Positions 3,942 to 39,322 of a stretch of 64,000 bases of DNA are shown one piece after another. The DNA is from an uncultured virus (IMG/VR IMGVR_UViG_3300029305_012016). Taxonomy: Duplodnaviria > Heunggongvirae > Uroviricota > Caudoviricetes. Position numbers and translations under genes: made by a program. The stretch's first letter is position 1. Each line of letters begins with the position of its first letter. A model generated the notes under the pieces. It was not told the DNA's origin. It ran no database searches and saw only the letters and a program-made list of their open reading frames with translations. Location of the stretch: IMG/VR virus record IMGVR_UViG_3300029305_012016; one strand, written 5' to 3'.

Positions 3942-3955
3942 ATTATGTAAGAAAA
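3942..3955 (-). promoter_or_regulatory. Element-specific promoter motif copy (dnaE)
   Basis: minus strand TTTTCTTACATAAT upstream of dnaE RBS. Confidence 0.7.
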
Positions 3956-3966
3956 CCACGACAAAC

Positions 3967-6812: not shown

Positions 6813-6826
6813 ATTATATATGAAAA
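6813..6826 (-). promoter_or_regulatory. Element-specific promoter motif copy
   Basis: minus TTTTCATATATAAT upstream of 6795 start. Confidence 0.65.
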
Positions 6827-6869
6827 CCGATAAAAAAAGAGAGAGACGAATAAAACATCTCTCTCTTCC

Positions 6870-7658
6870 TTAGAAGGCGGAATTTTCGTTTTTCCAAACG
6901 GCCTGTGCTGCCGCAGTTGTATACAGGTTGCGGTCGCTGACAGCGAGACCATTTCCGTATTTTCTTGAAATTTCAAGGATTTCATTGCAGGCAGTCTTGA
7001 TAGCTCTCGAAACGCAGGACTCGCCCACAATATCGCACAGCATCTTAGGTAGCGTCGAAGAGTTCCGCGTGCGGAACACTTCTTCGAAGCCCCAAATCCG
7101 AGACTGGCAATGTGTATCGATTATTTGGCGATATATATCCGGATCCTCTCTGAAAAGAGAAAACAGCGGATCTCTGTCTATGCACGTCTTAACGACAAAC
7201 AGAATATTCCCATCGTCTTCTTCAAATTCATCAATTTCGGCTCCTTCGGATCGGAGAGACATCGCGTATTCATAATCATAGGTTGCCTCTTTCGATGCGT
7301 AAACCGGAATTGCGGGCAAATTGATAGTCTGCCTTGCTTCGTATGAGATAAAGCCGAGAGTTTCTTTTTCTTCTGTTTGATAATACTCTTCTCCGCCACA
7401 AATCTCTGCCACGTACTGTACTGCTTCCGGAAAGGAGCAATCGTTTATAGTGGCTACCATATCGAAGACATCCAGTTTTGCCCCACAGGAATAGCACCTT
7501 AACCCTCGATGGTCGAGGAAGCAGCTTCCGATTTTTTTGTCTGCATGAGCCGGACACAAAACCATAATGCGGTTGCCACGACGATGCAATGTCAAACCAA
7601 GACTTTCAGCAACCAAAATCGCATCTGCATCTTGTTTGATAGCTCTTTTATTCAGCAT
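6870..7658 (-). CDS. CHC2 zinc-finger (primase ZBD-like) protein with no TOPRIM domain
   Basis: CPAH...CYSCG..LDVFD..F.EAV pattern of DnaG zinc-binding domain; remainder unrecognised. Confidence 0.8.
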   Translation of the reverse strand: MLNKRAIKQDADAILVAESLGLTLHRRGNRIMVLCPAHADKKIGSCFLDHRGLRCYSCGAKLDVFDMVATINDCSFPEAVQYVAEICGGEEYYQTEEKETLGFISYEARQTINLPAIPVYASKEATYDYEYAMSLRSEGAEIDEFEEDDGNILFVVKTCIDRDPLFSLFREDPDIYRQIIDTHCQSRIWGFEEVFRTRNSSTLPKMLCDIVGESCVSRAIKTACNEILEISRKYGNGLAVSDRNLYTTAAAQAVWKNENSAF

Positions 7659-7699
7659 CCACCTATCACTCCTTTCATCACATAATTAGTCCCTACTAT

Positions 7700-7713
7700 A
7701 TTTTACAAGAAAA
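7700..7713 (-). promoter_or_regulatory. Element-specific promoter motif copy
   Basis: minus TTTTCTTGTAAAAT. Confidence 0.7.
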
Positions 7714-7724
7714 CAAAACGAAAT

Positions 7725-7750
7725 AAAACCCGCACCATTGAAGGTGCGGG
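7725..7750 (-). terminator. Intrinsic terminator
   Basis: CCCGCACC/GGTGCGGG stem + T-run on minus. Confidence 0.7.
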
Positions 7751-7762
7751 CTTAGGTTCTGT

Positions 7763-9805
7763 TTATCCGCTAACGTAATTCTCAAGCTTTAATTCTACCG
7801 TTTGTTCCGAATCGAATTGTTCGAAGCGGATTACTACCGACTGATTTTCGGAATGATACTTCGTAGTTACAATGTTTCCCATCTTATCAACGAGAATTGT
7901 ATACTCCGTAGGAGGCGTGCTTGTATGCTCGTAGTATTTGTTAAACTGAAGAGCCGTTTGGACGGTTTCTATGAAAGCAGACATCTGTTCCGGAGTAATA
8001 GCACCTATCGTGATCTGATAGCGACCTGGGCCTTCAAAATACTGCCCTTCTTCGCCAATGCCGGGGTGAATGATTTGCGCTACAAGACTGGCAATATACG
8101 CCTCTTGTCCTGCTTCATCGATATAGTATTCCGGCTTCAGTTCTATCGTTTGCTCCGAATCAAATCTCTCAAATCGGATCACAACTGACTGCACTTCAGA
8201 ACCGTATTTGATAGTTACGATATTGCCCATTTCATCAGCAAGAATAACAAGCTTAGTGGGCACAGTAACCTTGACCTCATAGTATTTTCCGAATCCTAAT
8301 GTTGTTCGTATAGTTTTCGTGAATGTAGATATCTGTTCCGAGGATACGGCATTTATTGTAATCTGATAGCGACCGGGACCCTCAAAATATTCCGCCTCTT
8401 CGCCGAAACCAGGGTGAATAATTTGTGATATGAGATCAGAAATGTACGCTTCCTGTAACGCAATAGGATCTTCCGTGATTTTTTCAGTGGGGTCTTCCGT
8501 TACAGGTTCGGTTTCAGAAGGTTCCGGTTCGGTAGGCGGCTCCTCCTTAGCGGGAATGGTCCCCAAAATGGAAAGTCTGTGTTTTTGAAGCGAATTATAG
8601 CCTTGACCGGCGAAGTCAAAATAGTTATATACTTGAATCTCACCGGTTTTATCTAAAATCCTTGCCGAAGAAATAGTGATGTCGAGGGTTCCCACTTTTT
8701 CCCCGGTAGCAGCATCACAAACGAGAAGATCAAACTCCGAGGTATATCCATATATCTCCAGAATAATTTCCCCTTTAGTATGATCCATTAAGGAGATAAG
8801 TACATTTTCGCCGTCCTTGAGCTTTTCCAAAATATTTTGAAGGTCGGTTAAGGCCACATTATTCTTCCCGAATCTTTCCTTTGGCAGAGATTTGACGTCG
8901 CATTGAACCCGGTCGTTCTCCAGAACGATGGAAGTTGCAGTTTGGAGATCTGCTGACGTTATTTTTTTACAAGTGATTAAACCAAATCCGTTGCTCGGTA
9001 AGACAAATGAGAGTACGTCCGAATACCAAGACGACTCCATCAAGATGTCTTTGCCTAACAGAGACAGTCTGTTGTGTTCTGTCAGTTTGGTATCACTCAA
9101 AAATACAAGCAAGTCGCTCTCGTTTGCCTCAATGCGGTAGGAGCCATTCGAGTGCTGTTCCAACAAACTGTGGGCTCCGTCTTTGATGGCGTAGGCAAAA
9201 CCGGATCGGGGGAACTGAGCCCACCCGATAAATCCAGAGAAGCGGAATATATTGGGCGAACTTTCGATTACGCTTCCGTTTGCGTGAGACTTGTAATCGT
9301 CTGCCCACAGAATGACATCATTAACCTTAAACGGGTCATTTGCTGCAATTCCAAGATTGCGAATGTAGTTTTCTGCGGCTGATTCATACTTCGCAGGATT
9401 TGTGTTTGTGATAAACAATTCAGCGTAGTCGCTGACTCCATCCTTGTCGTAATCCGGGACGAAAGCGTTGGTCCCGTATTTATTCTCCAGCTCATTGATC
9501 AAGCCATCGCCGTCAAAGTCCTCGTTGGGAGCATTTCGGAACAAAGATATCGCTTCCTCCATGGCTGCATCATTCGGTTTCATCGTAATAGGGGAGGCAG
9601 TTTTTGTCGCATCGGGAGCAGAGAAGACAAGGGGCGGCAGATAAATTATCAATATCAATAAAGCCAAAACACCAATGAGAATCAGCTTCACTCTGGACTT
9701 TTTTGGGGTCACGGCCGGCTTGCCCAAATAATATACAGGGAGGGTGATACTGCCCACCTCTTTTTCTGCGATGGTCATTTTCTTTCTTAATCTATTTCTA
9801 CCCAT
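7763..9805 (-). CDS. Membrane-anchored protein with DxDxDG Ca-binding repeats and a duplicated ~115-aa C-terminal domain
   Basis: N-terminal TM helix; DFDGDGL and DYDKDGVSD; QEAYI..L..QIIHPG.GEE..YFEGPGRYQITI occurs twice. Confidence 0.75.
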   Translation of the reverse strand: MGRNRLRKKMTIAEKEVGSITLPVYYLGKPAVTPKKSRVKLILIGVLALLILIIYLPPLVFSAPDATKTASPITMKPNDAAMEEAISLFRNAPNEDFDGDGLINELENKYGTNAFVPDYDKDGVSDYAELFITNTNPAKYESAAENYIRNLGIAANDPFKVNDVILWADDYKSHANGSVIESSPNIFRFSGFIGWAQFPRSGFAYAIKDGAHSLLEQHSNGSYRIEANESDLLVFLSDTKLTEHNRLSLLGKDILMESSWYSDVLSFVLPSNGFGLITCKKITSADLQTATSIVLENDRVQCDVKSLPKERFGKNNVALTDLQNILEKLKDGENVLISLMDHTKGEIILEIYGYTSEFDLLVCDAATGEKVGTLDITISSARILDKTGEIQVYNYFDFAGQGYNSLQKHRLSILGTIPAKEEPPTEPEPSETEPVTEDPTEKITEDPIALQEAYISDLISQIIHPGFGEEAEYFEGPGRYQITINAVSSEQISTFTKTIRTTLGFGKYYEVKVTVPTKLVILADEMGNIVTIKYGSEVQSVVIRFERFDSEQTIELKPEYYIDEAGQEAYIASLVAQIIHPGIGEEGQYFEGPGRYQITIGAITPEQMSAFIETVQTALQFNKYYEHTSTPPTEYTILVDKMGNIVTTKYHSENQSVVIRFEQFDSEQTVELKLENYVSG

Positions 9806-9841: not shown

Positions 9842-9855
9842 ATTATATAAGAAAA
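9842..9855 (-). promoter_or_regulatory. Element-specific promoter motif copy
   Basis: minus TTTTCTTATATAAT. Confidence 0.75.
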
Positions 9856-9860
9856 CTAAG

Positions 9861-9900: not shown

Positions 9901-12015
9901 TTACACAGAGTTGATTCTTTCTCGCAATTTTGAGTTTCTTCTGATTGCCGGGACGGTGCCAACAGCTTTTGCTACGCTTCTCGCGTCGCCAAGGAGAACT
10001 AACTTCTTCTTGGGGCGAGTCGCTGCAGTATAGAGAAGGTTCCTCTGGAGCATGACATAATGCTCAGAGTTACAACAGACCACACATCCGTCATATTCCG
10101 AACCCTGCGATTTGTGGACCGTCGTGGCGTAAGCCAAAGATAATTGACTAAAAGCTCTCGACGCCGTATAGTCCAATAAGACGCCGGAGTCGAAGCGCAC
10201 AGAGACTACTTTAGCCTCCGAGTCAACATCAACAATCGTGCCACAATCGCCGTTGGCGATATGATCCTTCCATTCATTTTCCATTTGCATGACTCTGTCG
10301 TGCAGTCGCAGTGTTTTTTCTCCGCTCTCAATATAGGTCCCCGGAGATAAGGGGTTTAGGATGTCCTGAACCACTGTGTTAAGAAGACTGACAGAAGTGG
10401 ATGATCTGGTTCTCATTGGCGATAAGATCACGCACCCCTCCACACCGTACTTTTCGACCATTTGCATATAATGGTGAACGGCAAGATTTGTCATTTGGTC
10501 CTTCGTTGCGGGAACAAATCGGAAAGATTCATCTTGCATAAAAGAATGAACACCCTGCCCATTATTGATGTTTCTGGCATTGCTTGCAATAAAGCCGGAC
10601 TGTCTAAAGCAAAGCGTCAGTTTTACGCTCGGAACGCAAGGAGAAGCAAGAAGGTCTCGGAAAAAATTGCCGGGACCAACCGGAGGAAGCTGATCGACAT
10701 CTCCCACGAAGATAATTCTGGAAGATCTGCTGATCTTTGATAAGAGAGAATCTGCAAGAGTGATATCGAGCATTGACGCTTCATCCACAATAATGAGACT
10801 GTCCTCGATTTTTTCTTCTGTCGTCAAAATAACCTGATGGATCGTTTTGGCCGGAAGCTCCGTGACCTCCGTCATTCTGCGAGATGCCTTTCCGGTGGGA
10901 GCCGCAAGAACAACATTTTCCACATCATTATCATCGGCCAGAAAACAGTCGATAATAGCACGGGTGATCGTGCTTTTACCAGTTCCCGGACCACCTGTAA
11001 TTACGGAGATAGGGTATTTTAAGGCAGTTCGCACAGCGAGACACTGCGTTGCTTCAAGAGATGATTTAGATAAACCCATGTCGATAGCCAAATCTGATAC
11101 AGGAGGAAGAGTCGAATGTCTTGCCTCCCGAATCCTCTTTGCAATACGAGTTTCGGCAGTAAGAAGTCTCTTTCGATAGATTGCCCCATCTTCTTCAACG
11201 ACGAGCTGATTTTTTTCCCACAGTGTTTTTATGCTGTCGGCAATTACGTCAACGCTTGTTTCAACTCCCAACAAATCCGTTAGATTGCTGTGGAGAGTCG
11301 GTGCGTAAATAAAGCAGTGCCCGTCTCCCTCGACTTTGCGGAGAACATACACAATTGCTCCGCAGATGCGTCGAGGATCATCCTTAGGGATACCCAAGGA
11401 TAAGGCGATTTTGTCTGCCGTTTTGAAGCCAACGCCGTCGAGGTCCATAATAAGAATATAAGGGTCGCTTTTTAGCTTCGTCACCGATTCCTCTTTGTAA
11501 AGTTCATAGATAGAAAGAACTTTAGAATCGCTGATTTCGGGAGGAAGATATTCCCGGAGCTTTCGGTAAGCGACATTCTCCCAGTACGACTTAGCAATTT
11601 GGTCGCACATTGCAGGAGAAATGCCCTTGACTTTTGATAATGCCTGGGGATCTTCTTCAATCACCTTGTATGTGTCGGAACCAAACTCTTTGTAGATGCG
11701 TTCTGCTTTTCGGGTTCCAAGTCCCTTAATGAATCCGCTGGAGAGGAAAGAAACGATGGCATCCTTTGTCGCCTTCACTTTCATCTCCGACTTCACAATT
11801 TGGAATTGCGGGCCGTACTTGGGGTCATAGATCCACTTGCCATGTATGGCATACTCCGTTCCGTCATTTTTAGGTTCGTATAGGCTGCCGGAGGCACGGA
11901 ATTCTGAACCCTTATGTTCAGCAACTACACTCGACCAAGAACCGCGAGAGCAGAAGACTCTGCGAATGGTTACACCTTCAAGGGTCATATCTTTATCAAA
12001 TTCCGGTAAGTCCAT
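9901..12015 (-). CDS. recD2: RecD2-family SF1B helicase (copy B)
   Basis: N-terminal HhH (IKGLG); GGPGTGKS; APTGKA; DEASM; GDVDQLPPVG; AYATTVHKSQGSEY. Confidence 0.92.
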   Translation of the reverse strand: MDLPEFDKDMTLEGVTIRRVFCSRGSWSSVVAEHKGSEFRASGSLYEPKNDGTEYAIHGKWIYDPKYGPQFQIVKSEMKVKATKDAIVSFLSSGFIKGLGTRKAERIYKEFGSDTYKVIEEDPQALSKVKGISPAMCDQIAKSYWENVAYRKLREYLPPEISDSKVLSIYELYKEESVTKLKSDPYILIMDLDGVGFKTADKIALSLGIPKDDPRRICGAIVYVLRKVEGDGHCFIYAPTLHSNLTDLLGVETSVDVIADSIKTLWEKNQLVVEEDGAIYRKRLLTAETRIAKRIREARHSTLPPVSDLAIDMGLSKSSLEATQCLAVRTALKYPISVITGGPGTGKSTITRAIIDCFLADDNDVENVVLAAPTGKASRRMTEVTELPAKTIHQVILTTEEKIEDSLIIVDEASMLDITLADSLLSKISRSSRIIFVGDVDQLPPVGPGNFFRDLLASPCVPSVKLTLCFRQSGFIASNARNINNGQGVHSFMQDESFRFVPATKDQMTNLAVHHYMQMVEKYGVEGCVILSPMRTRSSTSVSLLNTVVQDILNPLSPGTYIESGEKTLRLHDRVMQMENEWKDHIANGDCGTIVDVDSEAKVVSVRFDSGVLLDYTASRAFSQLSLAYATTVHKSQGSEYDGCVVCCNSEHYVMLQRNLLYTAATRPKKKLVLLGDARSVAKAVGTVPAIRRNSKLRERINSV

Positions 12016-12018: not shown

Positions 12019-14172
12019 TTATTCCTTTCCCTGCAAGAGAGCCTGCAAATTGGATCTCCGCAGCATAGTTTTTCTGTTTAAGACGCAAGTAGCGATAGAA
12101 CCCTGGGCAACAACGAGGATTACTCGCTTTTTTGCTCTTGTAATAGCCGTGTAGAGCACGTTCCTCTGCAAGAGAGATTTAGGTTCCGAACCTAAAACAC
12201 AGATAGCCGTTGTGTATTCCGATCCTTGTGACTTGTGGATAGTCGTAGCATATGCGAGAGTCAAATCATCGAGATTGCAATGCTCGACAGGGATAACTTC
12301 GTCTCCGACTTTTACAGACAGAGAGTCCTGAGCCACAGAAACAATGGTGCCACAGTCGCCGTTATTATAGCCTGCTTCGTAATTGTTGCGGGTAAACATC
12401 ACCTTATCTCGCAGACAGAATGTCGTTCCACCATATCTCAAAAATTCCTCCCTTGTGGGATTAGCGAGAGCTTGAAGAACAGGATTGAGAGAAGATGTGG
12501 AAGATGAATACTTCCGTCTTGCAGGGGTGAGGACTTGGCAGGCAAAAATATCGTTGGGATCATGCCACTTCTCAAAAAGCTCCTTTACGAGAACAGGAAT
12601 GTCGGAATCATCCGCTTCCAGTACCTCAAAATCAGATCCTTTTTTCATAGATGTGATGCCGTCCCGAATACGCTTCGCATTGTCGATAATCAGACTTTCG
12701 CCGGCTTGTCGGAATGTTTTTGTCAGAGCGCATACCGGAATCCTTCCGCACTGCATAAGGTCAAGCAAGAAATTGCCCGCACCGACAGCAGGAAGCTGAT
12801 CGGGGTCGCCTGTGAAGATTACAGTCGTGCCATTACGAATTGCTCCGCACAAAAGAGCTGCCACTTCCAGAGAAATCATAGACGCTTCATCGACCAGTAA
12901 AAGGTCTGCGTCAATTGGATCCAGCTCATTCTTGTTGGTGAATCCACCTTCAAAGGGCCGGAAGTCCAAAAGACGATGTATGGTAGAGGTTGGAATGGCA
13001 TTTTTACATGCCTCACTCATTCTCTGAGCAGCGCGTCCTGTTGGGGCGCAACCCTTAATCTTGCCATTCGGATTCAACTTCCTAAATGCGGCAATCAGAC
13101 CTCGGATTACAGTGGTCTTGCCTGTGCCGGGACCTCCAGTTACAATACCGACGCCTCCGGTTTCAAGCAAAGAAAATGCTGCAGCCTGACCCTTATCATA
13201 CTTAACTTTCAGGTCATTTTCGACTTCTGTGACCAAGGCATCCTTATCAAAGGAGCATGTCTGCGCAGACCTATTGATCCTCGAAATAGCAGATGCAACA
13301 CGACGCTCTTGGATATACAGAGACTCTAAGTACACTCTGTCTTCATCAAGAACAAAACCGTGCTTGCCGTCACGCAAAACCCTACCGATACAGGCAGACG
13401 CGATGGTCTCTGTATATAGGGTCACGTCAAGCATTTTTTTAACCATAGTTACAACGGACGAATAGGGCGTAAAGGAATGACCTGAATTCGCTTCCTTTGT
13501 AAGAACATGGTTAACTGCACCGACGATCCGGCGTTCATCAAACACTTTGATGCCAGCCAGGTCTTTTGCGATAGCATCGCAGATTTGATAATGGATACCG
13601 GCATTTCGCCCGACCTTGAACGGGTCCGCAAGGAGCTTTGCCACCGATACGACTCCATACTCTTTGAAGATTTTTGCGACTTGGGAATATGTCACATCGT
13701 ACTTCTTGAGTAAAGAAAACAGATTGCGTAGTTCCGTAGTTTCTTTTGCCCAGTCAACAATAGCTTGTGCTCTGTTTTTGCTAACGCCGGGAACAGAAGA
13801 TAATTTTGTGATACCAGCCTCAGAAAGAGCGACATCAAAGATGTTGTTGCCAAACTGCGTTACAAGAAGCTTTGCCGTTGCTTCACCAACGGTGGGGATC
13901 TTCTTGAGCAGCTCCAGTGCTGTTTCGGGATCATTGAATGATTCCTCAACGACGCAATCGACTAACTGCGGCCCACGCTTAGTGTTCTTCCATGTTCCCG
14001 TTACCTCAACCAAGGAGCGCTCCCTTGGGGCAACAAGAGTAGATGAACAAACGATCTCTTTTGCATCCTCTTCTGTTATGACCGAAAAAACAGTATACCC
14101 GCTTTGTTGATCACGGTAAATAATTCTGTTGATTCGCCCGGTCACGATTTGTGTTTTTCCTAATTCGATCAT
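12019..14172 (-). CDS. recD2: RecD2-family SF1B helicase (copy A)
   Basis: GGPGTGKT; APTGRAA; DEASM; GDPDQLPAVG; AYATTIHKSQGSEY; LYTAITRAK. Confidence 0.92.
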   Translation of the reverse strand: MIELGKTQIVTGRINRIIYRDQQSGYTVFSVITEEDAKEIVCSSTLVAPRERSLVEVTGTWKNTKRGPQLVDCVVEESFNDPETALELLKKIPTVGEATAKLLVTQFGNNIFDVALSEAGITKLSSVPGVSKNRAQAIVDWAKETTELRNLFSLLKKYDVTYSQVAKIFKEYGVVSVAKLLADPFKVGRNAGIHYQICDAIAKDLAGIKVFDERRIVGAVNHVLTKEANSGHSFTPYSSVVTMVKKMLDVTLYTETIASACIGRVLRDGKHGFVLDEDRVYLESLYIQERRVASAISRINRSAQTCSFDKDALVTEVENDLKVKYDKGQAAAFSLLETGGVGIVTGGPGTGKTTVIRGLIAAFRKLNPNGKIKGCAPTGRAAQRMSEACKNAIPTSTIHRLLDFRPFEGGFTNKNELDPIDADLLLVDEASMISLEVAALLCGAIRNGTTVIFTGDPDQLPAVGAGNFLLDLMQCGRIPVCALTKTFRQAGESLIIDNAKRIRDGITSMKKGSDFEVLEADDSDIPVLVKELFEKWHDPNDIFACQVLTPARRKYSSSTSSLNPVLQALANPTREEFLRYGGTTFCLRDKVMFTRNNYEAGYNNGDCGTIVSVAQDSLSVKVGDEVIPVEHCNLDDLTLAYATTIHKSQGSEYTTAICVLGSEPKSLLQRNVLYTAITRAKKRVILVVAQGSIATCVLNRKTMLRRSNLQALLQGKE

Positions 14173-14216: not shown

Positions 14217-14230
14217 ATTTTATAAGAAAA
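14217..14230 (-). promoter_or_regulatory. Element-specific promoter motif copy (recD2 pair)
   Basis: minus TTTTTATC-N8-TTTTCTTATAAAAT. Confidence 0.75.
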
Positions 14231-14241
14231 TCATGCTTGAT

Positions 14242-15062: not shown

Positions 15063-15132
15063 AATAACCTCCTAAAACTAAAAAAATAGTTTGTTTCTAA
15101 AAAAAATTGAAAAAATTTTTCAAAAAAAACCC

Positions 15133-15148
15133 AAAAAGATATATACAG
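15133..15148 (+). promoter_or_regulatory. 16-bp box AAAAAGATATATACAG, copy 1
   Basis: exact match to copies at 20265, 27199 (reverse) and 27322; just upstream of a -35. Confidence 0.6.
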
Positions 15149-15159
15149 GTCTCCTCGAT

Positions 15160-15188
15160 TTGACTTATTGAAACTTTTATGGTAAAAT
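15160..15188 (+). promoter_or_regulatory. Canonical sigmaA promoter of the sigma-like operon
   Basis: TTGACT-17 bp-TAAAAT with TG extended -10. Confidence 0.75.
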
Positions 15189-15212
15189 ATTAACTGATAA
15201 TATCGGAAAGAG

Positions 15213-15548
15213 GTGAGAATAGTGAATAATCATAAGCCATTAGACCTACGCGGATTGATAGCTAACAGTATTCTTGAATATGCTATCGAGGTCTATGGGC
15301 GATTTGATGATTCTTTCGCTTTTTACAACGCTTGGCTATTTGATGTTGCTCGCAAACGCGGATACCCCATGGGAGATAGCGAGAACTTCGAATTTGCTAT
15401 TGCGATCATCTCTTCTTGCATTCACGCCCCTCTTAATCTTCTCAAGATTGATCAAGAGGTAGAAAGAATGTTTGACTCGCGCATCCTTGGAGAATTGAAT
15501 TTTAGGAACGGAAGGGGAAATAATAATGGAGAAGATTTGCATTACTGA
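15213..15548 (+). CDS. Hypothetical protein overlapping the start of the sigma-like gene
   Basis: 111-aa ORF downstream of promoter and RBS; overlaps next gene. Confidence 0.6.
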   Translation: MRIVNNHKPLDLRGLIANSILEYAIEVYGRFDDSFAFYNAWLFDVARKRGYPMGDSENFEFAIAIISSCIHAPLNLLKIDQEVERMFDSRILGELNFRNGRGNNNGEDLHY

Positions 15549-17352
15549 ATTGATATCTGATTTTCCGGAGAATGTAGTTCCCGGAATGGAGACGCAACTT
15601 GAAGGCAGGGCGTATAAACTGCTCCTTGCCATGATGCGCGGCACGAAGACACCGCTTACTCTCGCCGAGTTTATTCCTGAATATGCCCTGAAGCTTCGTA
15701 TCCCGAAGGCTTCTGTGACATCTACCAGAGAGAAAAAGCCTACAAAGTATCGCACTTGCAATGATGATGCCGATGATACTCAGCAAACAGATTACGAGAA
15801 TTTCGATTATAGCGAGAATGACGAAGGCGGCGACGACTTTATTGAAGAAGATATCGAAGACGAGGTTGAAGAGGACAGCTCTCGCAGATTCACTTTCCAC
15901 GGGAAGGAGGAATTAAGAGCTGTTATGGGCGAAGGTATTTTCGTTAGCACGCCGATCAAGTATCACTATTTGCTGATCCTGAGCAACGAGAATTTGGCCC
16001 ACCTGTACAACACCTCCAGGGACAATCTCAGTTTTTGTCAGCTCGTATCTGCAATCCTCGTAGAACGCAACGAGGGCCTTATTCGAAATATTATTGCCGG
16101 AAAGTGCGGATACCTCCCTGCCGATCAGATGAACGATTATGTGCAGAACGCAAAGCTCCGTATTCTCCTTGCATTAGACGAAGGAAAGTATAATCAGCCC
16201 GGAACATCTCTTCGTAAGGGCAGCAACCCCTTCGATTTGAGATTTGGCACCTTTATCGGGCGTCATATTTTTACAGCTATTGATGAACAGAATGCTGCAA
16301 ACAATGGTGTTTCTCTTCATACATACAGACAGGTCAAGAATCTGACCAGTGCAAGTGCTAAGAGTGAAAAAAGAACTCTTACAGTAGAAGACTTGTGTGA
16401 GACATGTAATTTTGGCCCTCGCTCCTATTCTCACATTAACACAGCAGCTAAGGCCATCAACGGTCATTCCATTGACAGTGGAACTTACGACACTGTAATC
16501 GCCGATAATTCTGATCCCGAATCCGAGTTCATGGAAAAGGAACGCTTGGGGGATATTCAGAGACGGGTAAGAAAAGCAGTCATGGATCTTGGACTTCTTT
16601 TCCCCGGCGAGGAAGAAATTGCAACTGAAGTGTTCTTCAAGCACTACGCTGAAGGCGAAACCAATGTTTCCCTTGCAGCACGCCTTGGAATAGAGCCGAC
16701 TAAAGTTGCCAGCATTCTCCGTATCGCAAAGCCGTATTTTAAGAATAACCCTGAGGTCGCCGCCTTCAATAAAGAGCAGAAGCGTGTCTTCAGCTCTATT
16801 CGCAGCCACATTCTTTCTCTGTCCCAAGTTGACGCGGTGAATAAAGCTGCCGACGAGATTACTGAAGATATCATTCAAGAGAGAGAACGCATCCTGATGG
16901 ATCGCAGATATGAGATGTATTCCGCTTACTTGGACGAGCTTTACGAGAAGCAGGGCACGGATTTAGTCCCTGTGTACCGGAAGCGGTCAGAATTCCGTAG
17001 AGTAACTGCAGGAAAGGAATCCCAGTGGATCCCTATTTCCAACGGTGTCATGGAAATCGGCTTCTTGATTGTCGGCACGCACCCCAATTGCCACCCTGAT
17101 GCAGATTACTACATCGAAGAGGCTTATGTAGTCCCCTCTGCGAGAGGCAAGGGATACATGACCCGCACCTTTAACAACTTCATTCGAGAGCACAAGGGCA
17201 CATACTGTTATTTTGTCCTTACCAAGAATGACAAAGCCAAAGCTTTTTGGGAGAAGAGATTCGCCAAACTCAACTACGAACCCCTCCCCCTCAGAGATGT
17301 GGGTGCAGCAAATGAGCATTGCGTTCAGTATGGATGCCGTCCGTGCTTTTAA
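15526..17352 (+). CDS. Divergent sigma70-family protein fused to a C-terminal GNAT acetyltransferase
   Basis: acidic linker; region 2-like LVERNEGLIRNI..DYVQNA..RFGTFIGRHIFTAI; region 3-like RTLTVEDLCE; region 4 HTH TNVSLAARLGIEPTKV; GNAT motif A YVVPSARGKG and N..A..FW. Confidence 0.72.
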   Translation: MEKICITELISDFPENVVPGMETQLEGRAYKLLLAMMRGTKTPLTLAEFIPEYALKLRIPKASVTSTREKKPTKYRTCNDDADDTQQTDYENFDYSENDEGGDDFIEEDIEDEVEEDSSRRFTFHGKEELRAVMGEGIFVSTPIKYHYLLILSNENLAHLYNTSRDNLSFCQLVSAILVERNEGLIRNIIAGKCGYLPADQMNDYVQNAKLRILLALDEGKYNQPGTSLRKGSNPFDLRFGTFIGRHIFTAIDEQNAANNGVSLHTYRQVKNLTSASAKSEKRTLTVEDLCETCNFGPRSYSHINTAAKAINGHSIDSGTYDTVIADNSDPESEFMEKERLGDIQRRVRKAVMDLGLLFPGEEEIATEVFFKHYAEGETNVSLAARLGIEPTKVASILRIAKPYFKNNPEVAAFNKEQKRVFSSIRSHILSLSQVDAVNKAADEITEDIIQERERILMDRRYEMYSAYLDELYEKQGTDLVPVYRKRSEFRRVTAGKESQWIPISNGVMEIGFLIVGTHPNCHPDADYYIEEAYVVPSARGKGYMTRTFNNFIREHKGTYCYFVLTKNDKAKAFWEKRFAKLNYEPLPLRDVGAANEHCVQYGCRPCF

Positions 17353-17374
17353 CGGAACAACCTAATAATTTTTC

Positions 17375-17415
17375 GCTCAACGCAGCAGACTTATCACTGC
17401 TGCGTTGAGCTTTTT
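17375..17415 (+). terminator. Terminator between convergent genes
   Basis: 14-bp perfect stem GCTCAACGCAGCAG/CTGCTGCGTTGAGC + TTTTT. Confidence 0.8.
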
Positions 17416-17426
17416 GTTCACGGGGC

Positions 17427-18296
17427 TTAGGCCTCAAAGTCTTCTGAAGACATGGTGGCAATTGGCCGAGGAATCTTATCCTCCATGTACATGGATTCGT
17501 TTACCGTACGAAGCAAGACCAAATCCACGCGTAATAAATCGAGAGTTTCTTCCCGCTGCTCGTTGTAGCCAATCGCACATATTTCTTGAGCCCGAGCGAG
17601 CCGTTCTTCGCAGGCAGCGATTTCAGCAGAGATTTGTTCATTGATAGGGGCCATCCATCCGAGCTTTGCATGTCGAGCCATAACAGACTCGCCAAAAACT
17701 GTAGGCATTGCAGCACAAGCATCGAAAAGGCGTACACTAAGATCTCTAAAAAGATCAGCTCTGATGATGGCGGGATCTTCTGCATAATGGAATGAATCAG
17801 CAAAGTCCTGTTGATCAGGGTAAATCCATAGGCTTTCGATGATTCGAGCAATCTTTTTGTCAAGATCCACTTCAATTCGCAAAGTTTGCATGAGCGAAAT
17901 TTTAACTTCCTTGATTGCAATGCGACAATCTGTTTCCTGGGTGATGAAGGACGCCTCCCAAATAACATGCTGTTCATCTCGGATTGCGTGCGCCATGATT
18001 CCCTGGCGGAACGCCAACACTCTTTGGTTCTCCCAAATAACTTTATTTGCAATATCCGGATAGCAGAGGAGGATATCGGGGTTGGAACGCATCTTGGTTT
18101 CGAGATGTACTCTCATGCGCTTGAAGGCTTCGCTGATATCCATGGCTTCGGTTGCTTCTGAATACATCGGCCACCAACGGTTCATGCAATGCGTAATACA
18201 CACCGGATTATCGGAGATTGCGAGACCTATGAGCTCATCGAGCTCCTCAATGCTGGGCCTTCCAACACGGGGCCTTTTGACTGGCTTTACTTTCAT
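17427..18296 (-). CDS. Hypothetical protein, paralog of the N-terminal half of the upstream neighbour
   Basis: colinear shared motifs EAFK..R.H, WE.S.IT, T.RIE, IE..WIY...F.D, P.P.A. Confidence 0.75.
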   Translation of the reverse strand: MKVKPVKRPRVGRPSIEELDELIGLAISDNPVCITHCMNRWWPMYSEATEAMDISEAFKRMRVHLETKMRSNPDILLCYPDIANKVIWENQRVLAFRQGIMAHAIRDEQHVIWEASFITQETDCRIAIKEVKISLMQTLRIEVDLDKKIARIIESLWIYPDQQDFADSFHYAEDPAIIRADLFRDLSVRLFDACAAMPTVFGESVMARHAKLGWMAPINEQISAEIAACEERLARAQEICAIGYNEQREETLDLLRVDLVLLRTVNESMYMEDKIPRPIATMSSEDFEA

Positions 18297-20361: not shown

Positions 20362-23300
20362 TTAATCTTTCTTGCCTCTCGTAGTAACGATTACAGCTAC
20401 AGCGAATGCGATTGCGACAGTGGATGCACCGATAACGATCAGCCACTTGTTGCGGTTTCCGGTATCGCCGGTAACGGGATAGTCAACCATGGTAATGGTT
20501 TGAGTCTCTGCAGTATCCTTAACGGTAAACTCGATATCAGCAGCAAGCTCATAACCCTTGGGAGCAGTTACTTCGTGCATGATGTACGTCTCGCCGACAG
20601 TCAATCCTTCAACCTCAAAGGGCTTGTCGGAGGATGTCCACTCATACAGGACCTTGCCTTCCTTATCGATGATCTGGAATACGCCATTGCTCAGAGGCTT
20701 GTCGTCTTCCCCGACCTTAATGAACTCGAACTTTGTCAGCTCGTCGATCATCTCAACCTTCTGGACTTCGCCGGTATCCTTGACTGTGAATTCAACAGAA
20801 GATGCGGTTGCATAACCAAGAGGCGCGAGGTCTTCGTGCAGAATGTAGGTCTTGCCAACTTCAAGGCCGGTAACGATGTGGGGCTCTTCGGTAGAAGTCC
20901 AAGAGTCGATTTCGTTGCCATCCTTATCGGTTAGTTTCAGACTTGCACCGGGAAGCTCTTCGCCGGCCATATCCTTCTTACTGATCTCAACGGTGATGAT
21001 TTCATCAATCATCTTAACCTTCTGAACTTCTTCGGTATCCTTAACGATGAATTCAACGGAAGAAGCCTTTGCATAACCAAGAGGCGCGAGATCTTCGTGC
21101 AGAATGTAGGTCTTGCCGACTTCAAGGCCGGTAACGATGTGAGGCTCTTCGGCAGAAGTCCAAGAGTCGATTTCGTTGCCTTCGGCATCGGTAAGTCTCA
21201 TGCTTGCCCCGGGAAGTTCACTGCCGGAAATATCCTGCTTGCTGATTTCGACGGTAATGGGTTCGTCGATCATCTCGATAAGCTGAATAGCAGTAGTGTC
21301 TGCAACGGTAAACTTGACATCGGGTGCAGTAGCGTAGCCCTTGGGAGGCTGAACCTCATGAAGAGTGTATTCGTTGCCAACGGTCAACTGGGTTACAACG
21401 TGGGGCTGTTCGGAGGATGTCCACTCGTCAATTACGGTGCCATCGGCATCGATTACTTGGAGGATAGCACCTTCAAGGATTTCACCTTCATCGGTCTTCT
21501 TAGTGATACGGACACCAGTAGGAAGGTTTGCCAGTTCAATCTTCTGGACATCGGTAGTATTTAGAACGGTGAATTCCTTGTCGTCTGCAAGGACATAACC
21601 GGGGCGAGTTGCTGTCTCATGGAGAGTGTAAGTTGCACCAACGGTCAGCTTGTCGCAACGATGGGGCTCGCCATTGGTGGTCCATTCATCGATCACTTCA
21701 CCCTCGGAATCGAGGATCTGGAGAGTTGCACCGGTAAAGGGTTTGCCGTTCTCGTCAACCTTATCGATCTGGATCTTTGTGCAATCGTTGATCATTTTGA
21801 CGTTCTGGACATCTTTGGTGTCCTTTACGGTGAAAGGTACGTCCTCCGCGACAACATAGCCGTCAATAGTAGCGGTCTCGTGCAGGATGTATTCGTTACC
21901 AACTGCCAACTTGCCGGTAATGTCGTAAGGCTCGGTGGAACTGATCCATTCGGCATAGACATTGCCTTCGGCATCGATTACCTGGAGAGTTGCACCGGCA
22001 AAGGGCTTGCCGTTCTCGTCCACCTTGTTGATGCGAACGATGGTGGGGAGATTCTTCATAACCACCGTCTGAACTTCGGGGGTTTCTTTTACAGTGATGG
22101 TGACATCTTCCGCAAGAATATATCCAGGCTTAGTGAAGACTTCGTGTACAGTATAGGTCTTACCTACTTCGCACTCTGCAACAAAGTTACGAGGTTCTCC
22201 GTCGGTGGTCCACTCGTCGAGAACATTACCGTTCTCGTCAAGAAGCTGGAGTCCGGCTCCGTAGAAGGGTTCGCCCTTCTCGTCTACCTTCATTACTTGG
22301 ATTCGAGTGGGAAGATCAAGCATCTCAACATACTGAGTTTCTCTCGTCTTTTCGAGAGTGAAAGGAACATCGTCTGCAAGGAGATATCCCTTGGGCGCAT
22401 ATGTTTCATGGAGAGTGTACGGCACACCATAATCAAGACCCTCGATGATGTAAGGATCACTGGTGGTTTCCCATTCGGCTACGATCTTATTATCTGCATC
22501 AATGATCTGAAGCCCTGCGCCGGGAATAAGATTGCCGTTATCGGCCTTCTTGGTAACTTCTACCTTGGTAATGGTGGGAGCCTTAATGCGGAAATATACA
22601 GGGATGGGGTCACGAGATGCAGTGGCGGAAACGAGCTTCTGATCAGTGGTGCCGGCAGCTTCCCATACGGTGATAGTGGAGTCGCAGTCGGTGTACACTG
22701 CCTTGCCGACGGCACTGAAGGTTACGGTTTCGGGGAGAGTAATGTATACATCGGGATCACATTCAATTTTCAGAGTAGTGTTGCTTGTCCGAGTAATTGT
22801 CAGACCCGTGATATCGGACTTGAAGTTGTAATCGGGAAGTGTCTGGAGATTGGGATCGGTGGTATTATCCTTCAGCTCAATCTCGTATTTGCCGGTGGCC
22901 TTGTTGAGAGCAAGTTCGTAGGAGTAGTTATCCAAATTAGAGCTGCTATTGTTACGAGTTGCGAAGGTAGGATATTTTCCGTGACGCAACAATGCATCAT
23001 GCATGGAATTGTATACTGCATAAAGCCCGTCCCATTCGGAAGAAGAGAATGCACTGCAATACATGTTGCTGCAAGAGAAATCGTAAGGACTTCTCGCACC
23101 CAAGATGATTTCCCAAATCATCAACTGAGTGGCAGCGTACTTCTCTTCCTCCATAGCAGGAATATCGCTGAACTGCACTGTGGGGTAGCCGTATGCGGTA
23201 ATCAGAGCGATAGCGTTTTTCTTATCGTAAGAAAGATCTCGCCATGCAGCAAGTTCATCATTAGTTGTGAATCCTGCATAAACGCCAGCATTGGTAATCG

Positions 23301-23970
23301 GCACACCAGGCTCGATACAATAAGCAACTTTCGTCACGCCGTCCTTGGAGAGATAAGTAACAGTAACAGCATCAACTGCTCTGCCATTAGTACCGGTTGC
23401 AAAAGCTCTCGTAGCATTGACGGTGAAGGGACGGTCGATTTCCCAAGGTTTTTCGATAATATCTCGCTTAGGGATATCTTCTGTGGCAGGCTCGACTTCT
23501 TCTGCCTCGGTGACAGCTTCGGCCTCTGAAGTTGTTTCCTCTTCCTCATTAGGAACTTCTGTTTCCTCAACCTCAGTCTCTTCTTCTACAACTGTTTCCG
23601 TGGAGAGTGTCTCCTCAAAGACTTCCTCGGTGGGAACCTCTGTCTCGACTTCACTTTCAGTAGCTTCCTCAACTTCAGTTTCCTCGGTCGCTTCCACGGC
23701 AACAGTCTCTTCTGTAGGCTCTGTAGCCTCTGTAAGTTCTGTGACCGGCTCAGACTCAGGTTCGATCAAGTCATTTGACTCCGAGACTGCCTCGGTGAGT
23801 TCGGCGAGTTCGGTGGGTTCTGCTTCTGCCTGTTCTGCGACAGATTCGGTGGGGGAAGGTTCGACAACGACATTGTCGTCGCTTCCGACGGCGAGCACCG
23901 ATGTCCCAATGTTTGCAATCAATGCGAGCAAAAGTAAAATCGGTACTACATGTTTCTTGATGAATGTCAT
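20362..23970 (-). CDS. Sortase-anchored adhesin with thioester domain and about 8 SpaA/CnaB-type repeats
   Basis: signal peptide from MTFIKK; E/T-rich stalk; AYCIEPG and ATQLMIW; repeated LHE..AP.GY; sorting signal YPVTG + TM + basic tail. Confidence 0.9.
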   Translation of the reverse strand: MTFIKKHVVPILLLLALIANIGTSVLAVGSDDNVVVEPSPTESVAEQAEAEPTELAELTEAVSESNDLIEPESEPVTELTEATEPTEETVAVEATEETEVEEATESEVETEVPTEEVFEETLSTETVVEEETEVEETEVPNEEEETTSEAEAVTEAEEVEPATEDIPKRDIIEKPWEIDRPFTVNATRAFATGTNGRAVDAVTVTYLSKDGVTKVAYCIEPGVPITNAGVYAGFTTNDELAAWRDLSYDKKNAIALITAYGYPTVQFSDIPAMEEEKYAATQLMIWEIILGARSPYDFSCSNMYCSAFSSSEWDGLYAVYNSMHDALLRHGKYPTFATRNNSSSNLDNYSYELALNKATGKYEIELKDNTTDPNLQTLPDYNFKSDITGLTITRTSNTTLKIECDPDVYITLPETVTFSAVGKAVYTDCDSTITVWEAAGTTDQKLVSATASRDPIPVYFRIKAPTITKVEVTKKADNGNLIPGAGLQIIDADNKIVAEWETTSDPYIIEGLDYGVPYTLHETYAPKGYLLADDVPFTLEKTRETQYVEMLDLPTRIQVMKVDEKGEPFYGAGLQLLDENGNVLDEWTTDGEPRNFVAECEVGKTYTVHEVFTKPGYILAEDVTITVKETPEVQTVVMKNLPTIVRINKVDENGKPFAGATLQVIDAEGNVYAEWISSTEPYDITGKLAVGNEYILHETATIDGYVVAEDVPFTVKDTKDVQNVKMINDCTKIQIDKVDENGKPFTGATLQILDSEGEVIDEWTTNGEPHRCDKLTVGATYTLHETATRPGYVLADDKEFTVLNTTDVQKIELANLPTGVRITKKTDEGEILEGAILQVIDADGTVIDEWTSSEQPHVVTQLTVGNEYTLHEVQPPKGYATAPDVKFTVADTTAIQLIEMIDEPITVEISKQDISGSELPGASMRLTDAEGNEIDSWTSAEEPHIVTGLEVGKTYILHEDLAPLGYAKASSVEFIVKDTEEVQKVKMIDEIITVEISKKDMAGEELPGASLKLTDKDGNEIDSWTSTEEPHIVTGLEVGKTYILHEDLAPLGYATASSVEFTVKDTGEVQKVEMIDELTKFEFIKVGEDDKPLSNGVFQIIDKEGKVLYEWTSSDKPFEVEGLTVGETYIMHEVTAPKGYELAADIEFTVKDTAETQTITMVDYPVTGDTGNRNKWLIVIGASTVAIAFAVAVIVTTRGKKD

Positions 23971-24016
23971 AATGAAATCCTCCTTAAAAAATTCGTTGGG
24001 GTCTTGACATGAATAT

Positions 24017-24030
24017 ATTATATAAGAAAA
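24017..24030 (-). promoter_or_regulatory. Element-specific promoter motif copy (adhesin)
   Basis: minus TTTTCTTATATAAT. Confidence 0.75.
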
Positions 24031-24177
24031 CGAAAAAAAAATATGAGTTCCGCGAAAGGCAGGCTTTGTGAAACACATTTTTGATTCAAAAATTTTTATA
24101 TTTTGAAAAAAAGAAAAAGTCTCGCCCAAAAAGACAAGACTTTAGTGTGAATATGTAATTGAACTCAAGGGTTTCGA

Positions 24178-27137: not shown

Positions 27138-27151
27138 ATTATACAAGAAAA
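27138..27151 (-). promoter_or_regulatory. Element-specific promoter motif copy
   Basis: minus TTTTCTTGTATAAT. Confidence 0.75.
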
Positions 27152-27198
27152 CGAAAATAAAATATTAGGAGTTTTGGGGAAATCTCTAAAAAATCTAT

Positions 27199-29044: not shown

Positions 29045-29471
29045 TTACTTGCGTCCCCTCGGACTCAAGCGGAGGATTGCTTCGGATGCGAGTTTGCTTC
29101 GGACGCATTCCGAATCATAGAAAGTTACCTGGCGGCACAGAGAAGAACCGCGCATACGCTCAGCCGCAAAGACAAGACCGTTGGAGCGACTATCCAACCG
29201 GGGATTATCGATCTGATTGGGATCACCGGCAAGGATGATCTTGCTTCCGCGCCCTGCACGAGAAATGATGCCGAATGTCTGAAGGGGAGTCATGTTCTGT
29301 GCTTCGTCGATGATGATCCATGTGTCCGCAACAGAGCGACCACGCATATATGCCATTGCCTGAGCAGAAATCAGGTCTCGTTCAAACAGTTCATCCACGT
29401 AGGTGATAGTCTTGGAGTCGCCTTCGGACTTTGCGGATGCCTCCAATCGGCACAGGTCCTCAAGATTATCC
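29045..29471 (-). pseudogene. phoH: PhoH-family ATPase, C-terminal fragment only
   Basis: YMRGRS, IIDEAQN, SRAG.GSKIIL.GD..QID, RS.LA; Walker A absent; begins at IS right end. Confidence 0.85.
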
Positions 29472-29650
29472 TTGACACTCCCCACATCTAAAGAAGGGGG
29501 ATTCTTGGTTCAACGACTGTTGCCCACCAAATAGGCGGGTCTTACATAGTCTCCGCAAGCGTTAGGTTCGGACGTATCCCGCCCTACCGTATGTTTACAG
29601 GCTATGCCAGAAGGCGCAGTCCTTCGTTTAGGATATTGATCGCCGCATTG
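29452..29650 (-). ncRNA. Predicted TnpB omegaRNA (scaffold + flank-derived guide); boundaries approximate
   Basis: overlaps tnpB 3' end and IS right end, as is established for TnpB systems. Confidence 0.55.
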
Positions 29651-30843
29651 ACATCTCTGTTATGCTTTGCTCCGCAATGCGGGCAAGTCCACTTCCGTAC
29701 TTGAAGATTTTTTACTTCGGGCCGTTGCTGCCCACAGTTACTGCAGATCTGACTCGACGGATAGAGGTGATCAATCGTAACAAGCCGTCTCCCGTACCAC
29801 TGAGCTTTATAGGTGAGCTGCCTGCGCAGCTCGCCCCAGCTCGCATCAGCGACATATTTTGCCAGATAGCGATTTTGCTCTATCTCCTTCACATCGAGAT
29901 CCTCAATGCAGATGATGTCATTGTTTCGAATGATCTTGGTTGTGAGCTTGTGATGCGCATCGTTTCTCTGATTGGCAATATGCTCATGGAGACGGGCAAC
30001 CCGAATGCGGGCCTTATTCCAGTTTGCACTGCCCTTTGTTTTTCGGGACAGTTGCCGCTGGAGGCGAGCCAGCTTCTTTTCGGATTTTGTGAACGGCTTC
30101 GAGTTAAGGTACATCTCTCCATTGGAGGCTACTACAAGATGCTTTGAGCCAAAGTCAAGCCCAATGGAAGCGCCGGTATCCGGTAGCTTCTCAGGTTCCT
30201 GATCCAGACGGCAGCAAAGAGCAACATAGTATTTCCCACTGGCAGACCGAGATACCGTAGCCGACAGGATTTTTCCCTGTACAGCACGGGAGATTCGGCA
30301 CTTCACTGAGCCAAGCTTGGGGAGTTGTACAACATTCTCCAACACTTTGATGTTTGTACCCACACATTTGCTTTTGTAGGATTGCTTGCGGTCGTGCTTG
30401 CTCTTGAATTTGGGATATCCTGGCTTATTGCCTTGTTTTACATGCCGGAAGAAATTTTGGTAAGCATCGTCCAAATCCCGGAGGGAAGACTGCAAAGCTG
30501 TGGCATCCACTTCCCGGAGCCACAGGGTTTCTTCCTGCTGTTTTAGTCTGGTCATATCTTTTGCGCAGGCATAGTAGTTCAGCGTTTTGCCCGTCTGATC
30601 GTAGGTATCTTTACGGAGCGCGAGATAGTGGTTAAAAACAAACCGGCAGCATCCGAAGGTACGCAGTATTAAGTTTGCCTGCTCCCGATTGGGATACAGT
30701 CGGAATTTGTAGGAGTATTCCATTACCTCACTCCTTCCTAACACTTTTAGTATATTGCACAGCCCTATCTATTTGGTGAATGGAGTATGAATTTTGCGCC
30801 TTATATCCCCATAGATAAATCAAGGGGTTTTACGGCGATTTTG
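29472..30843 (-). mobile_element. IS200/IS605-family element, tnpB only (IS1341-like, non-autonomous)
   Basis: left-end hairpin CCCC..GGGG after TTAT; right-end hairpin CCCC..GGGGAGTG ending in TCAA; no tnpA. Confidence 0.85.
29602..30723 (-). CDS. tnpB: TnpB RNA-guided endonuclease
   Basis: [17 protein letters not shown]; RuvC GLDFG / IEDL / RDVNAA intact; zinc ribbon CSNC..CPHC. Confidence 0.95.
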
Positions 30844-30861: not shown

Positions 30862-30875
30862 ATTATACAAGAAAA
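30862..30875 (-). promoter_or_regulatory. Element-specific promoter motif copy, directly upstream of IS left end
   Basis: minus TTTTCTTGTATAAT. Confidence 0.7.
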
Positions 30876-31070
30876 CTTCAAAAAAATATTAAAAGCTCAA
30901 CATGACTTAAAATTTTGGGTGTTTGGTTCATAAGTCAAAAATTTAGAAATGCAGACAATTCAAAAAAAAAGGAATAAATCAAACTTTTCTCACAGCAAGC
31001 AAAGGACAGGAAGCGAAGCGCAGCAATATTGAGCCCGCGCTAAATTAGTACAAGCTATCCTATCCTATGC

Positions 31071-35721: not shown

Positions 35722-35735
35722 TGGAGAAAAAATAT

Positions 35736-39311: not shown

Positions 39312-39322
39312 TGAATGCAGAT

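Follow-up and report, generated by a model that had tools for sequence, protein, structure and literature searches.

This work concerns one gene in a 64,000-nucleotide stretch of DNA (the window), which is the IMG/VR record IMGVR_UViG_3300029305_012016 of an uncultured virus. The gene is a single uninterrupted open reading frame (ORF) at 15526–17352 on the plus strand, stop codon included, with an ATG start and GGAAGGGG 8 nt upstream. Its 608-residue product appears to join a very divergent sigma-70-family module to a complete GNAT acetyltransferase. Our best reading, to which we give a probability of roughly 0.55, is that this is a working sigma factor with an active tethered GNAT, formed by a lineage-specific fusion of two modules. 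That the fusion itself is real we hold with high confidence. The original prediction, made from the sequence alone, had described one 608-residue ORF with an acidic tract, segments colinear with sigma-70 regions 2, 3 and 4, and a complete GNAT domain, and this description has held up. The strings quoted there are found at residues 242 (TFIGRHIFTAI), 458 (MDRRYEM, nucleotide 16897), 534 (YVVPSARGKG) and 568 (NDKAKAFW).

The sigma-like module

The family profile (alignment A4) was compared using hhalign with four E. coli sigma factors, namely RpoS, FliA, RpoH and the C-terminal 244 residues of RpoD, taken from the annotated K-12 record. The match has a probability of 93.3% (E 2.7e-7) and runs in order over 254 columns, from region 1.2/2.1 to region 4.2, covering RpoS 28–315. 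All 12 controls were negative: the reversed sigma alignment gave 0.1%, ten column shuffles gave at most 0.2% with E of at least 0.25, and an unrelated GNAT profile (A3) gave 0.45% with E 0.13. When the three-sequence profile was searched against the PDB, the top match was a sigma factor domain, 8b3z_A, with E 0.007 for alignment A2 and 0.0039 for A4. Sigma factors account for seven of the ten sequences found with A4 at E up to 10. They match at colinear places, SigA being aligned at region 2.3/2.4 and FliA at the boundary of regions 3.2 and 4.1. The single protein, searched against the PDB using phmmer, had no matches.

The other two sequences in the profile are the only relatives of the sigma part that were detected, P0141 (537 residues, 28% identical over residues 101–453) and P0153 (558 residues). 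The three members are mutually 24–28% identical, and all have the three sigma domains in order. With phmmer, a search through 1.84 billion representatives gave 318 proteins at E up to 0.001; the best 150 were considered, and weaker relatives of the sigma part may sit beyond these. A word-indexed protein search found nothing with the whole protein and only P0141 and P0153 with the family profiles, and there are no loci related to the sigma part in viral, genome or metagenome contigs. The relatives have sub-threshold matches to Pfam sigma models that fall at colinear places: to Sigma70_r2 with E 0.059 and 0.014 (13.6 and 15.6 bits against a cut-off of 24), and to Sigma70_r4_2 with E 0.15 (12.2 bits against 25.7).

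Structure prediction from the single sequence using AlphaFold was uninformative (pLDDT 36.4). The model from the three-sequence alignment has pLDDT 57.9 and pTM 0.47, with domains 2 and 3 at 70–80, and the sigma fold is present in this predicted structure at both domain 2 and domain 4. Foldseek against the PDB returned 49 rows, all of which are sigma-factor or RNA polymerase (RNAP) holoenzyme entries, with chain lengths that fit the sigma subunit. Against BFVD, 26 of the 29 named rows are phage sigma or RNAP-subunit proteins. Language-model features gave 0.95 to Sigma70_r2 clusters, and the language-model structure rows were sigma clusters in ten cases out of ten, all with TM below 0.5. On the basis of these profiles and predicted folds, we take residues ~120–412 to be a sigma-70-family module that is very divergent and comprises domains 2, 3 and 4. 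It probably still works as a sigma factor.

The boundaries of the parts, all on the plus strand, were taken from the hhalign map and the predicted model. The N-terminal region (residues 1–77; 15526–15756) is partly common to P0141 and P0153 and has no known fold assigned. It is followed by the acidic tract (residues 78–118; 15757–15879), in which 21 of the 41 residues are D or E and none is K or R; P0141 and P0153 likewise carry an acidic tract. Predicted sigma domain 2 (residues ~151–262; 15976–16311) has D-x-V-Q at region 2.2, GRHIF at region 2.3, and between these regions a 12-residue insertion found in the window protein only among the three members. Domain 3 and the region 3.2 linker (residues ~263–327; 16312–16506) align to RpoS 164–242. 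Domain 4, with its predicted helix-turn-helix, was placed by both the hhalign map and the model (residues ~331–412; 16516–16761). A helical C-terminal extension (residues 413–457; 16762–16896), modelled with low confidence, is common to the three family members and leads directly into the GNAT module (residues 458–608; 16897–17349), which was identified by Pfam, relatives and fold.

Region 2.2 of the four E. coli sigmas has the motif D-L-I-Q-E-G-N-x-G-L. D204 and Q207 are kept in all three family members, and G-N-x-G-L is replaced by A-K-L-R-I-L. The original prediction also noted that the WW dyad of region 2.3 is replaced, and saw in this a hint of altered promoter recognition. The replacement is confirmed, with R-H at this position in all three members. 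The hint is weakened, because the same two columns are WW in RpoD and RpoS but QR in FliA, HW in RpoH and RC in the sporulation sigma 8b3z. Thus RH in place of WW appears unexceptional, since real alternative sigmas are also without WW, and the loss probably has little bearing on any unusual mode of promoter recognition. R-H at these columns would place the protein among the alternative sigmas; the absence of WW excludes only groups 1 and 2, and not the sigma-70 family. ECF (group 4) sigmas consist of domains 2 and 4 with a short linker between them and no domain 3. Here, the ~65 residues between domains 2 and 4 align to RpoS region 3 and form a predicted three-helix fold (model residues 145–210 correspond to this segment). 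Having domain 3, the module is not an ECF sigma and appears to be group-3-like.

The acetyltransferase and its junction

The original prediction of a complete GNAT, which we place at residues 458–608, is supported by both sequence and predicted fold. Pfam Acetyltransf_1 matches residues 496–577 with 22.8 bits (cut-off 20.7), and two PHROG acetyltransferase families match weakly (E 0.0017 and 0.0025); an NCBIfam scan gave no match. An Atlas model of residues 456–608 compares with GNAT clusters at TM 0.86/0.81 over 147 residues, with predicted models on both sides of the comparison.

The phmmer matches are dominated by this module. Among the best 150 of the 318, 148 cover query residues 427–608 only; the other two are P0002 (145 residues, 95% identical, an N-terminal fragment of the same protein) and P0141, which matches the middle part. 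The GNAT-only matches are short, 140 of the 148 having no more than 200 residues (median 162.5 for the set). An alignment with 20 GNAT relatives shows that the free-standing proteins start within a few residues of Met458, and the caution of the original prediction, that this internal methionine could mark a fusion point, was apt.

The window GNAT retains all 6 invariant and 11 nearly invariant columns of its family. The subfamily signature consists of N-C-H-P-D, a second conserved Cys, R-x-x-G-x-M and N-x-x-A-x-x-F-W. The conserved set in this protein (window 16897–17349, alignment A3) includes Cys-His-Pro at 522–524, the invariant Cys561 and Trp575, where many GNATs have Tyr. The acetyl-CoA pyrophosphate-binding motif of GNATs is R/Q-x-x-G-x-G/A. 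Here it is R540-G-K-G543-Y-M545, which retains R and G and ends in M. The form R..G.M is present in 94 of the 148 listed GNAT-only relatives and R..G.[GA] in 24, and the methionine appears to be a family-wide variant rather than a defect of the window copy. In nine clusters of this subfamily, all members read are unnamed. By sequence, the nearest solved GNAT is the polyamine acetyltransferase Dpa (8a9n/8a9o), and the match is weak (E 0.003), so no substrate can be transferred from it.

No loci related to the GNAT part were found in viral contigs. Two relatives were counted in genome contigs, without loci, and five loci in metagenome contigs. The one that was read (L003, on a 243-kb contig, 7463–8534) has the GNAT relative as a separate gene of 165 residues, overlapping the 3′ end of an unrelated 193-residue ORF by 8 nt, with neighbours that are dUTPase-like and SNF2-helicase-like, judging from their translations. 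The GNAT also occurs as a tandem pair in P0007 (323 residues), and behind other unexplained N-terminal modules in P0037 (288 residues) and P0100 (302 residues). The N-terminal parts of these three proteins match no Pfam family. Taken together, the family would appear to consist of small, normally free-standing acetyltransferases in large mobile elements.

The fused form is found repeatedly. The exact 608-residue protein occurs on 7 contigs from two repositories, the longest being 239,378 bp. In the search database the full-length protein is grouped under its 145-residue cluster representative P0002, and other fused forms may be masked likewise. For the whole protein, one relative was counted in viral contigs and no locus was returned. 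Part of the stretch is carried by 20 public runs from 17 studies, 7 of which carry at least half of the sampled words; according to their records these are feces and gut metagenomes of animals, and there is no RNA run among them. Contigs of four runs (X1, X2, X6 and X10) were compared over 15100–17500. The contigs of X1 (16043–17103) and X2 (16508–17091) both cross the junction at nucleotide 16897 with no differences and no gaps. X6 and X10 have no contig across the junction. No insertion or deletion was seen over this interval in any of the four runs, and the strain single-nucleotide polymorphisms within the ORF are 6 synonymous and 5 non-synonymous. The module boundary is at Met458, with an in-frame junction present in independent assemblies.

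The two relatives of the sigma part are without the GNAT and no others were detected, and on this ground the fusion appears to be confined so far to one lineage. Neither module has a second copy in the window. GC content at third codon positions (GC3) is 0.583 for the GNAT part and 0.484 for the sigma part, compared with a mean of 0.474 (sd 0.042, range 0.408–0.594) for 18 large genes of the window. This difference is a weak hint of a separate origin for the GNAT.

The fusion ORF is the second gene of a small plus-strand unit lying amid minus-strand genes. The first gene, orf111 (15213–15548, +), is an orphan of 111 residues with a GTG start and AAGAGGTGA upstream, which overlaps the start of the 608-residue ORF by 23 nt and has no family or relative in Pfam, PHROGs, NCBIfam, the PDB or plasmids. 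The unit is preceded by a promoter-like site of host sigma-A type at 15160–15188 (+), TTGACT-17-TAAAAT with TG before the -10 hexamer, which matches 10 of the 12 consensus positions. The scan that located it found 5 sites against 4.5 expected in shuffles, and it is therefore a consensus match only. Downstream, a sequence scan located a terminator-like hairpin at 17375–17410 (+), which has a 14-bp stem with 9 G-C pairs followed by a T run. At the junction itself, Met458 has no good ribosome-binding site, the only candidate being the purine run AAGAGAGAGAA 9 nt upstream. The sequence TGATG at the junction looks like a stop-start overlap. However, it is in another frame, which is open for 18 codons only, and it is a 1-in-16 chance given the ATG, and so it was given no weight.

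A promoter-like motif and the element that carries it

A search for repeated upstream words brought out the motif GTTTTCTTATA, which, with up to 1 mismatch allowed, has 16 matches in the window where 1.63 would be expected; a count of 16 was reached in 0 of 100 shuffles. Fifteen of the 16 copies are on the minus (coding) strand, and 12 of these 15 lie 21–121 nt from the next listed minus-strand start. The copies ending at 24031 and 35722 are followed, some 40 nt on, by an ATG with a ribosome-binding site, a start that is absent from the ORF list, and the copy ending at 59626 has no evident start downstream. The consensus of the 15 sites is 18 nt long, [G/A]TTTTCTT[A/G]TA[T/A]AATATA, and lies behind a T-rich stretch; no -35 hexamer is conserved across them. 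When viral contigs were scanned for the exact 18-nt motif, there were 12 single, scattered matches, which are uninformative.

The minus-strand copy at 3946–3956, 45 nt before the gene for DNA polymerase III alpha, is a candidate target of the sigma-GNAT protein. Others are at 7704–7714, before a primase-like gene, at 14221–14231, before the pair of RecD2-like helicases, and at 24021–24031, before the probable true start of the adhesin gene. The remaining copies given by the motif scan, all on the minus strand, are at 6817–6827, 9846–9856, 27142–27152, 30866–30876, 35712–35722, 37395–37405, 39302–39312, 51958–51968, 54764–54774, 59616–59626 and 62028–62038. The motif thus marks most transcription units of the element, and not the sigma-GNAT unit, which has no copy before it. 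No other sigma gene was found in the window. We infer, tentatively, that the motif is the promoter recognised by the sigma-GNAT protein; this link is possible but falls short of being probable.

A second shared leader element, GAT(A)TTTTATGTGATGATTGGAG, was observed about 15–45 nt downstream of the motif in about 6 of the 15 units, running into the ribosome-binding site. It follows the minus-strand copies ending at 3956, 7714, 14231, 51968, 59626 and 62038, and may be a leader or regulatory element.

The window represents 64 kb of an element of at least 239 kb. Its replication genes encode a primase-like protein and DNA polymerase III alpha, together with a tandem pair of RecD2-like helicases that lie 3 nt apart (704 residues at 9901–12015 and 717 at 12019–14172, both minus strand). 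Genes of plasmid type include two Rep3-type initiators, a ParM/Alp-like partition protein and a YoeB/YefM pair, and there are also DNA methyltransferases, a TnpB-like gene, a sortase and a TED/SpaA adhesin. Capsid, tail and terminase families were absent among the 62 window ORFs scanned with PHROGs. A phage origin was considered and is less likely, given the lack of these families and the Rep3, ParM/Alp, YoeB/YefM, sortase and adhesin genes, which point to a plasmid. Among plasmids, the closest DnaE is carried by Ruminococcus albus 7 on a 420-kb plasmid, with 38.8% identity across 94% of the query. We read the element as a large plasmid-like replicon, with gut Clostridia as its presumed hosts.

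Three further ORFs of the window, all on the minus strand, are worth adding. The ORF at 54783–55214 (143 residues) has a sub-threshold match to Pfam RNA_pol_inhib (E 0.0013, 19.1 bits against a cut-off of 27), and is only a lead to a possible second RNA polymerase-directed protein. The TTG start listed for the TED/SpaA adhesin ORF (20362–24129) is probably too far upstream, because the motif copy at 24021–24031 lies inside the listed ORF, and AAGGAGG with an ATG follows about 40 nt on; the resulting N-terminus, MTFIKKH..., resembles a signal peptide. Finally, an ORF of 146 residues (29045–29485) matches only the C-terminal half of PhoH (profile positions 94–200 of 205) and adjoins a TnpB/IS605 OrfB-like gene at 29602–30744; it may be a PhoH gene cut by the TnpB/IS605 insertion.

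Proposed function, alternatives and known systems

On the basis of these observations, we propose the following sequence of events. The host housekeeping holoenzyme would transcribe the two-gene unit of orf111 and the fusion, starting at an ordinary extended -10 promoter. The fusion product would then bind host core RNA polymerase via domain 2, and the resulting holoenzyme would be directed to the element's own promoters, for which the best candidates are the 15 copies of the 18-nt motif before minus-strand genes. A host-type promoter, no motif copy before the gene and no other sigma in the window would together make up the layout of a sigma cascade. The tethered acetyltransferase would be carried into the initiation complex. 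There it would acetylate a nearby protein, with the sigma itself, a subunit of RNA polymerase or a protein bound at the promoter as possible targets. That the GNAT acts on the transcription machinery at all is doubtful. The full form of this idea is unlikely, namely that an enzyme-sigma within the holoenzyme, with its acetyltransferase placed beside the beta flap, upstream DNA, the alpha C-terminal domains and proteins bound at the promoter, re-aims RNAP to the 18-nt promoters and there acetylates the polymerase, the displaced host sigma or nucleoid proteins. If true, it would be the first case of a bacterial initiation factor that carries a protein-modifying activity of its own.

Several observations weigh against the reading of a working sigma with an active GNAT. 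Pfam sigma models give no match to the whole protein at E up to 1, nor to residues 1–457 at E up to 5. The Foldseek matches have a best E of 6.2e-4 and TM of only 0.2–0.4, the low TM arising because the domains are differently arranged in the model. The glycines of region 2.2 are lost in the family. The promoter-like motif carries a perfect, host-type TATAAT, and host sigma A might therefore read it unaided. Lastly, P0141 and P0153 have acidic tails of about 75–90 residues after the shared segment, with the GNAT absent. The original prediction had looked to homologs to show whether the fusion is kept: neither keeps it, which speaks against a conserved fusion, and what stands is that the fusion is real DNA in this element.

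These points bear differently on the alternatives. An artefact of assembly or sequencing is a very improbable explanation for the fusion, and so is a recent read-through of pseudogene type. Metagenome assemblies are the fusion's sole source, and one of the carrying runs may be the source of the window itself, but 7 contigs from two repositories have it, 2 runs of 2 studies bridge the junction without a difference, no run of the four has an indel, all 608 codons are open, and the polymorphisms lean synonymous. A more serious alternative, although still unlikely, is that a downstream free GNAT gene became joined in frame incidentally and keeps its usual job, leaving the sigma unaffected, with a free GNAT possibly also made from Met458. 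This would fit the 140 of 148 listed GNAT-only relatives that are free-standing, with the aligned ones starting near Met458, as well as the separate gene in L003, which overlaps an unrelated upstream ORF, and the occurrence of the same GNAT behind unrelated N-terminal modules (P0007, P0037 and P0100). It would also fit the two GNAT-less sigma relatives, the lack of a linker at the junction, the difference in GC3 and the polyamine acetyltransferase as nearest solved GNAT by sequence, weak as that match is (E 0.003). On the other hand, the assemblies show the fused form (7 contigs, two runs) and no variant in which the parts are split, Met458 has no good ribosome-binding site, and there is no second GNAT copy in the window.

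The two remaining alternatives change the role of one module. The GNAT might be a built-in regulator or sensor, which binds acetyl-CoA or a substrate, or acetylates the sigma, and so switches it on or off. C-terminal extensions are the second commonest form of ECF sigma regulation, being found in 19 groups (PMC7826278, PMC8999054). No anti-sigma gene was recognised nearby in the family scans, and the long acidic tail at the same position in the relatives could also be auto-inhibitory. We nevertheless consider this improbable. The protein has domain 3 and is not an ECF sigma, and the residues conserved in the GNAT family are all kept, which an active enzyme would fit better than a degenerate sensor. 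The ECF extensions named in passages of PMC7826278 are SnoaL-like, TPR, Cys-rich or membrane segments. It is slightly less probable again that the sigma-like module only docks on RNAP, either as a competitor of host sigma or as a handle that delivers the GNAT, or that it acts as a DNA-binding regulator. Its extreme divergence, the failure of every curated sigma model, the lost region 2.2 glycines and the host-type TATAAT of the motif promoters are all consistent with docking only. Against it, the three domains are kept in order across members that are 24–28% identical, which argues for selection on the whole sigma architecture. We continue to favour a working sigma with an active tethered GNAT. 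Even if the fusion is incidental, the analysis defines a three-member sigma-like family missed by all curated models, a large family of small, so far unnamed GNATs carried by big mobile elements in gut bacteria, and a sharply conserved promoter-like motif that marks the majority of transcription units on a plasmid-like element no shorter than 239 kb.

Among known systems, SigN (ZpdN) of plasmid pBS32 from Bacillus subtilis is likewise a sigma-70-family protein on a large low-copy Bacillota plasmid. Its transcription depends on SigA promoters of the host, and it in turn controls a plasmid-borne regulon, which is the layout proposed here (PMC6751061). No sequence match between the two proteins was detected, tblastn of the fusion protein against 72,556 plasmids giving one GNAT match only. 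SigN also has its own SigN-dependent promoter, whereas no motif copy lies before the sigma-GNAT gene. SigN is not known to have a fused enzyme, acidic tract or C-terminal extension.

The group 3 sigmas (SigE/SigK type, FliA, RpoS/RpoH) have in common with the fusion the domain order 2-3-4, the D-x-[VI]-Q of region 2.2 and the helix-turn-helix of domain 4. The best solved matches are 8b3z_A (the SigE N-terminal domain), which has R at the first W position as does the sigma-GNAT family, and 8hkc_E (sigma-32). Identity to group 3 sigmas is only about 15%, with no curated model passed, and the fusion has in addition the 12-residue insertion, an N-terminus of about 117 residues with the acidic tract, the 45-residue extension and the GNAT. 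Phage sigmas in BFVD (Bacillus phages vB_BmeM-Goe8, Eldridge and Deep Blue) are of the same predicted fold class and are also encoded by an element; they match at Foldseek E 2e-4 to 1e-2 and 11–20% identity, and no listed row is described with an acetyltransferase.

ECF sigmas with C-terminal extensions (ECF41/56 SnoaL-like, ECF42 TPR, CorE Cys-rich) likewise have an extra domain behind domain 4, but domain 3 is absent from these group 4 sigmas, and the extensions serve as sensors rather than enzymes (PMC7826278, PMC8999054). In the main text of two ECF-wide surveys, one of them PMC7826278, neither ‘acetyltransferase’ nor ‘GNAT’ appears. Rac (gp28) of phage LUZ19 and other phiKMV-like phages is likewise a small GNAT of a mobile element aimed at the host transcription machinery, which it inactivates via the RNAP alpha subunit (PMC7552054), a precedent for polymerase as the target of mobile-element GNATs. 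It differs in being a free protein with no sigma tether, in a different host phylum, and no sequence relation to the window GNAT was looked for or seen. Dpa has the GNAT core in common, with about 90 residues aligned including the R-x-x-G motif, but the C-H-P, second Cys and Trp positions of the subfamily form no part of that match.

The original prediction knew of no characterised sigma-GNAT fusion, and our literature searches likewise found none, the papers that came up dealing with an Hfq-binding acetyltransferase and with PadR repressors; the architecture of a sigma factor with a fused acetyltransferase appears to be undescribed. Extensions that act as sensors are familiar in sigma factors, and modification of host RNAP by separate enzymes is familiar in mobile elements. 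A sigma factor with a covalently attached, apparently active acetyltransferase would unite these two ideas, and would offer a simple, testable model for how a modifying enzyme could be aimed at the transcription machinery.

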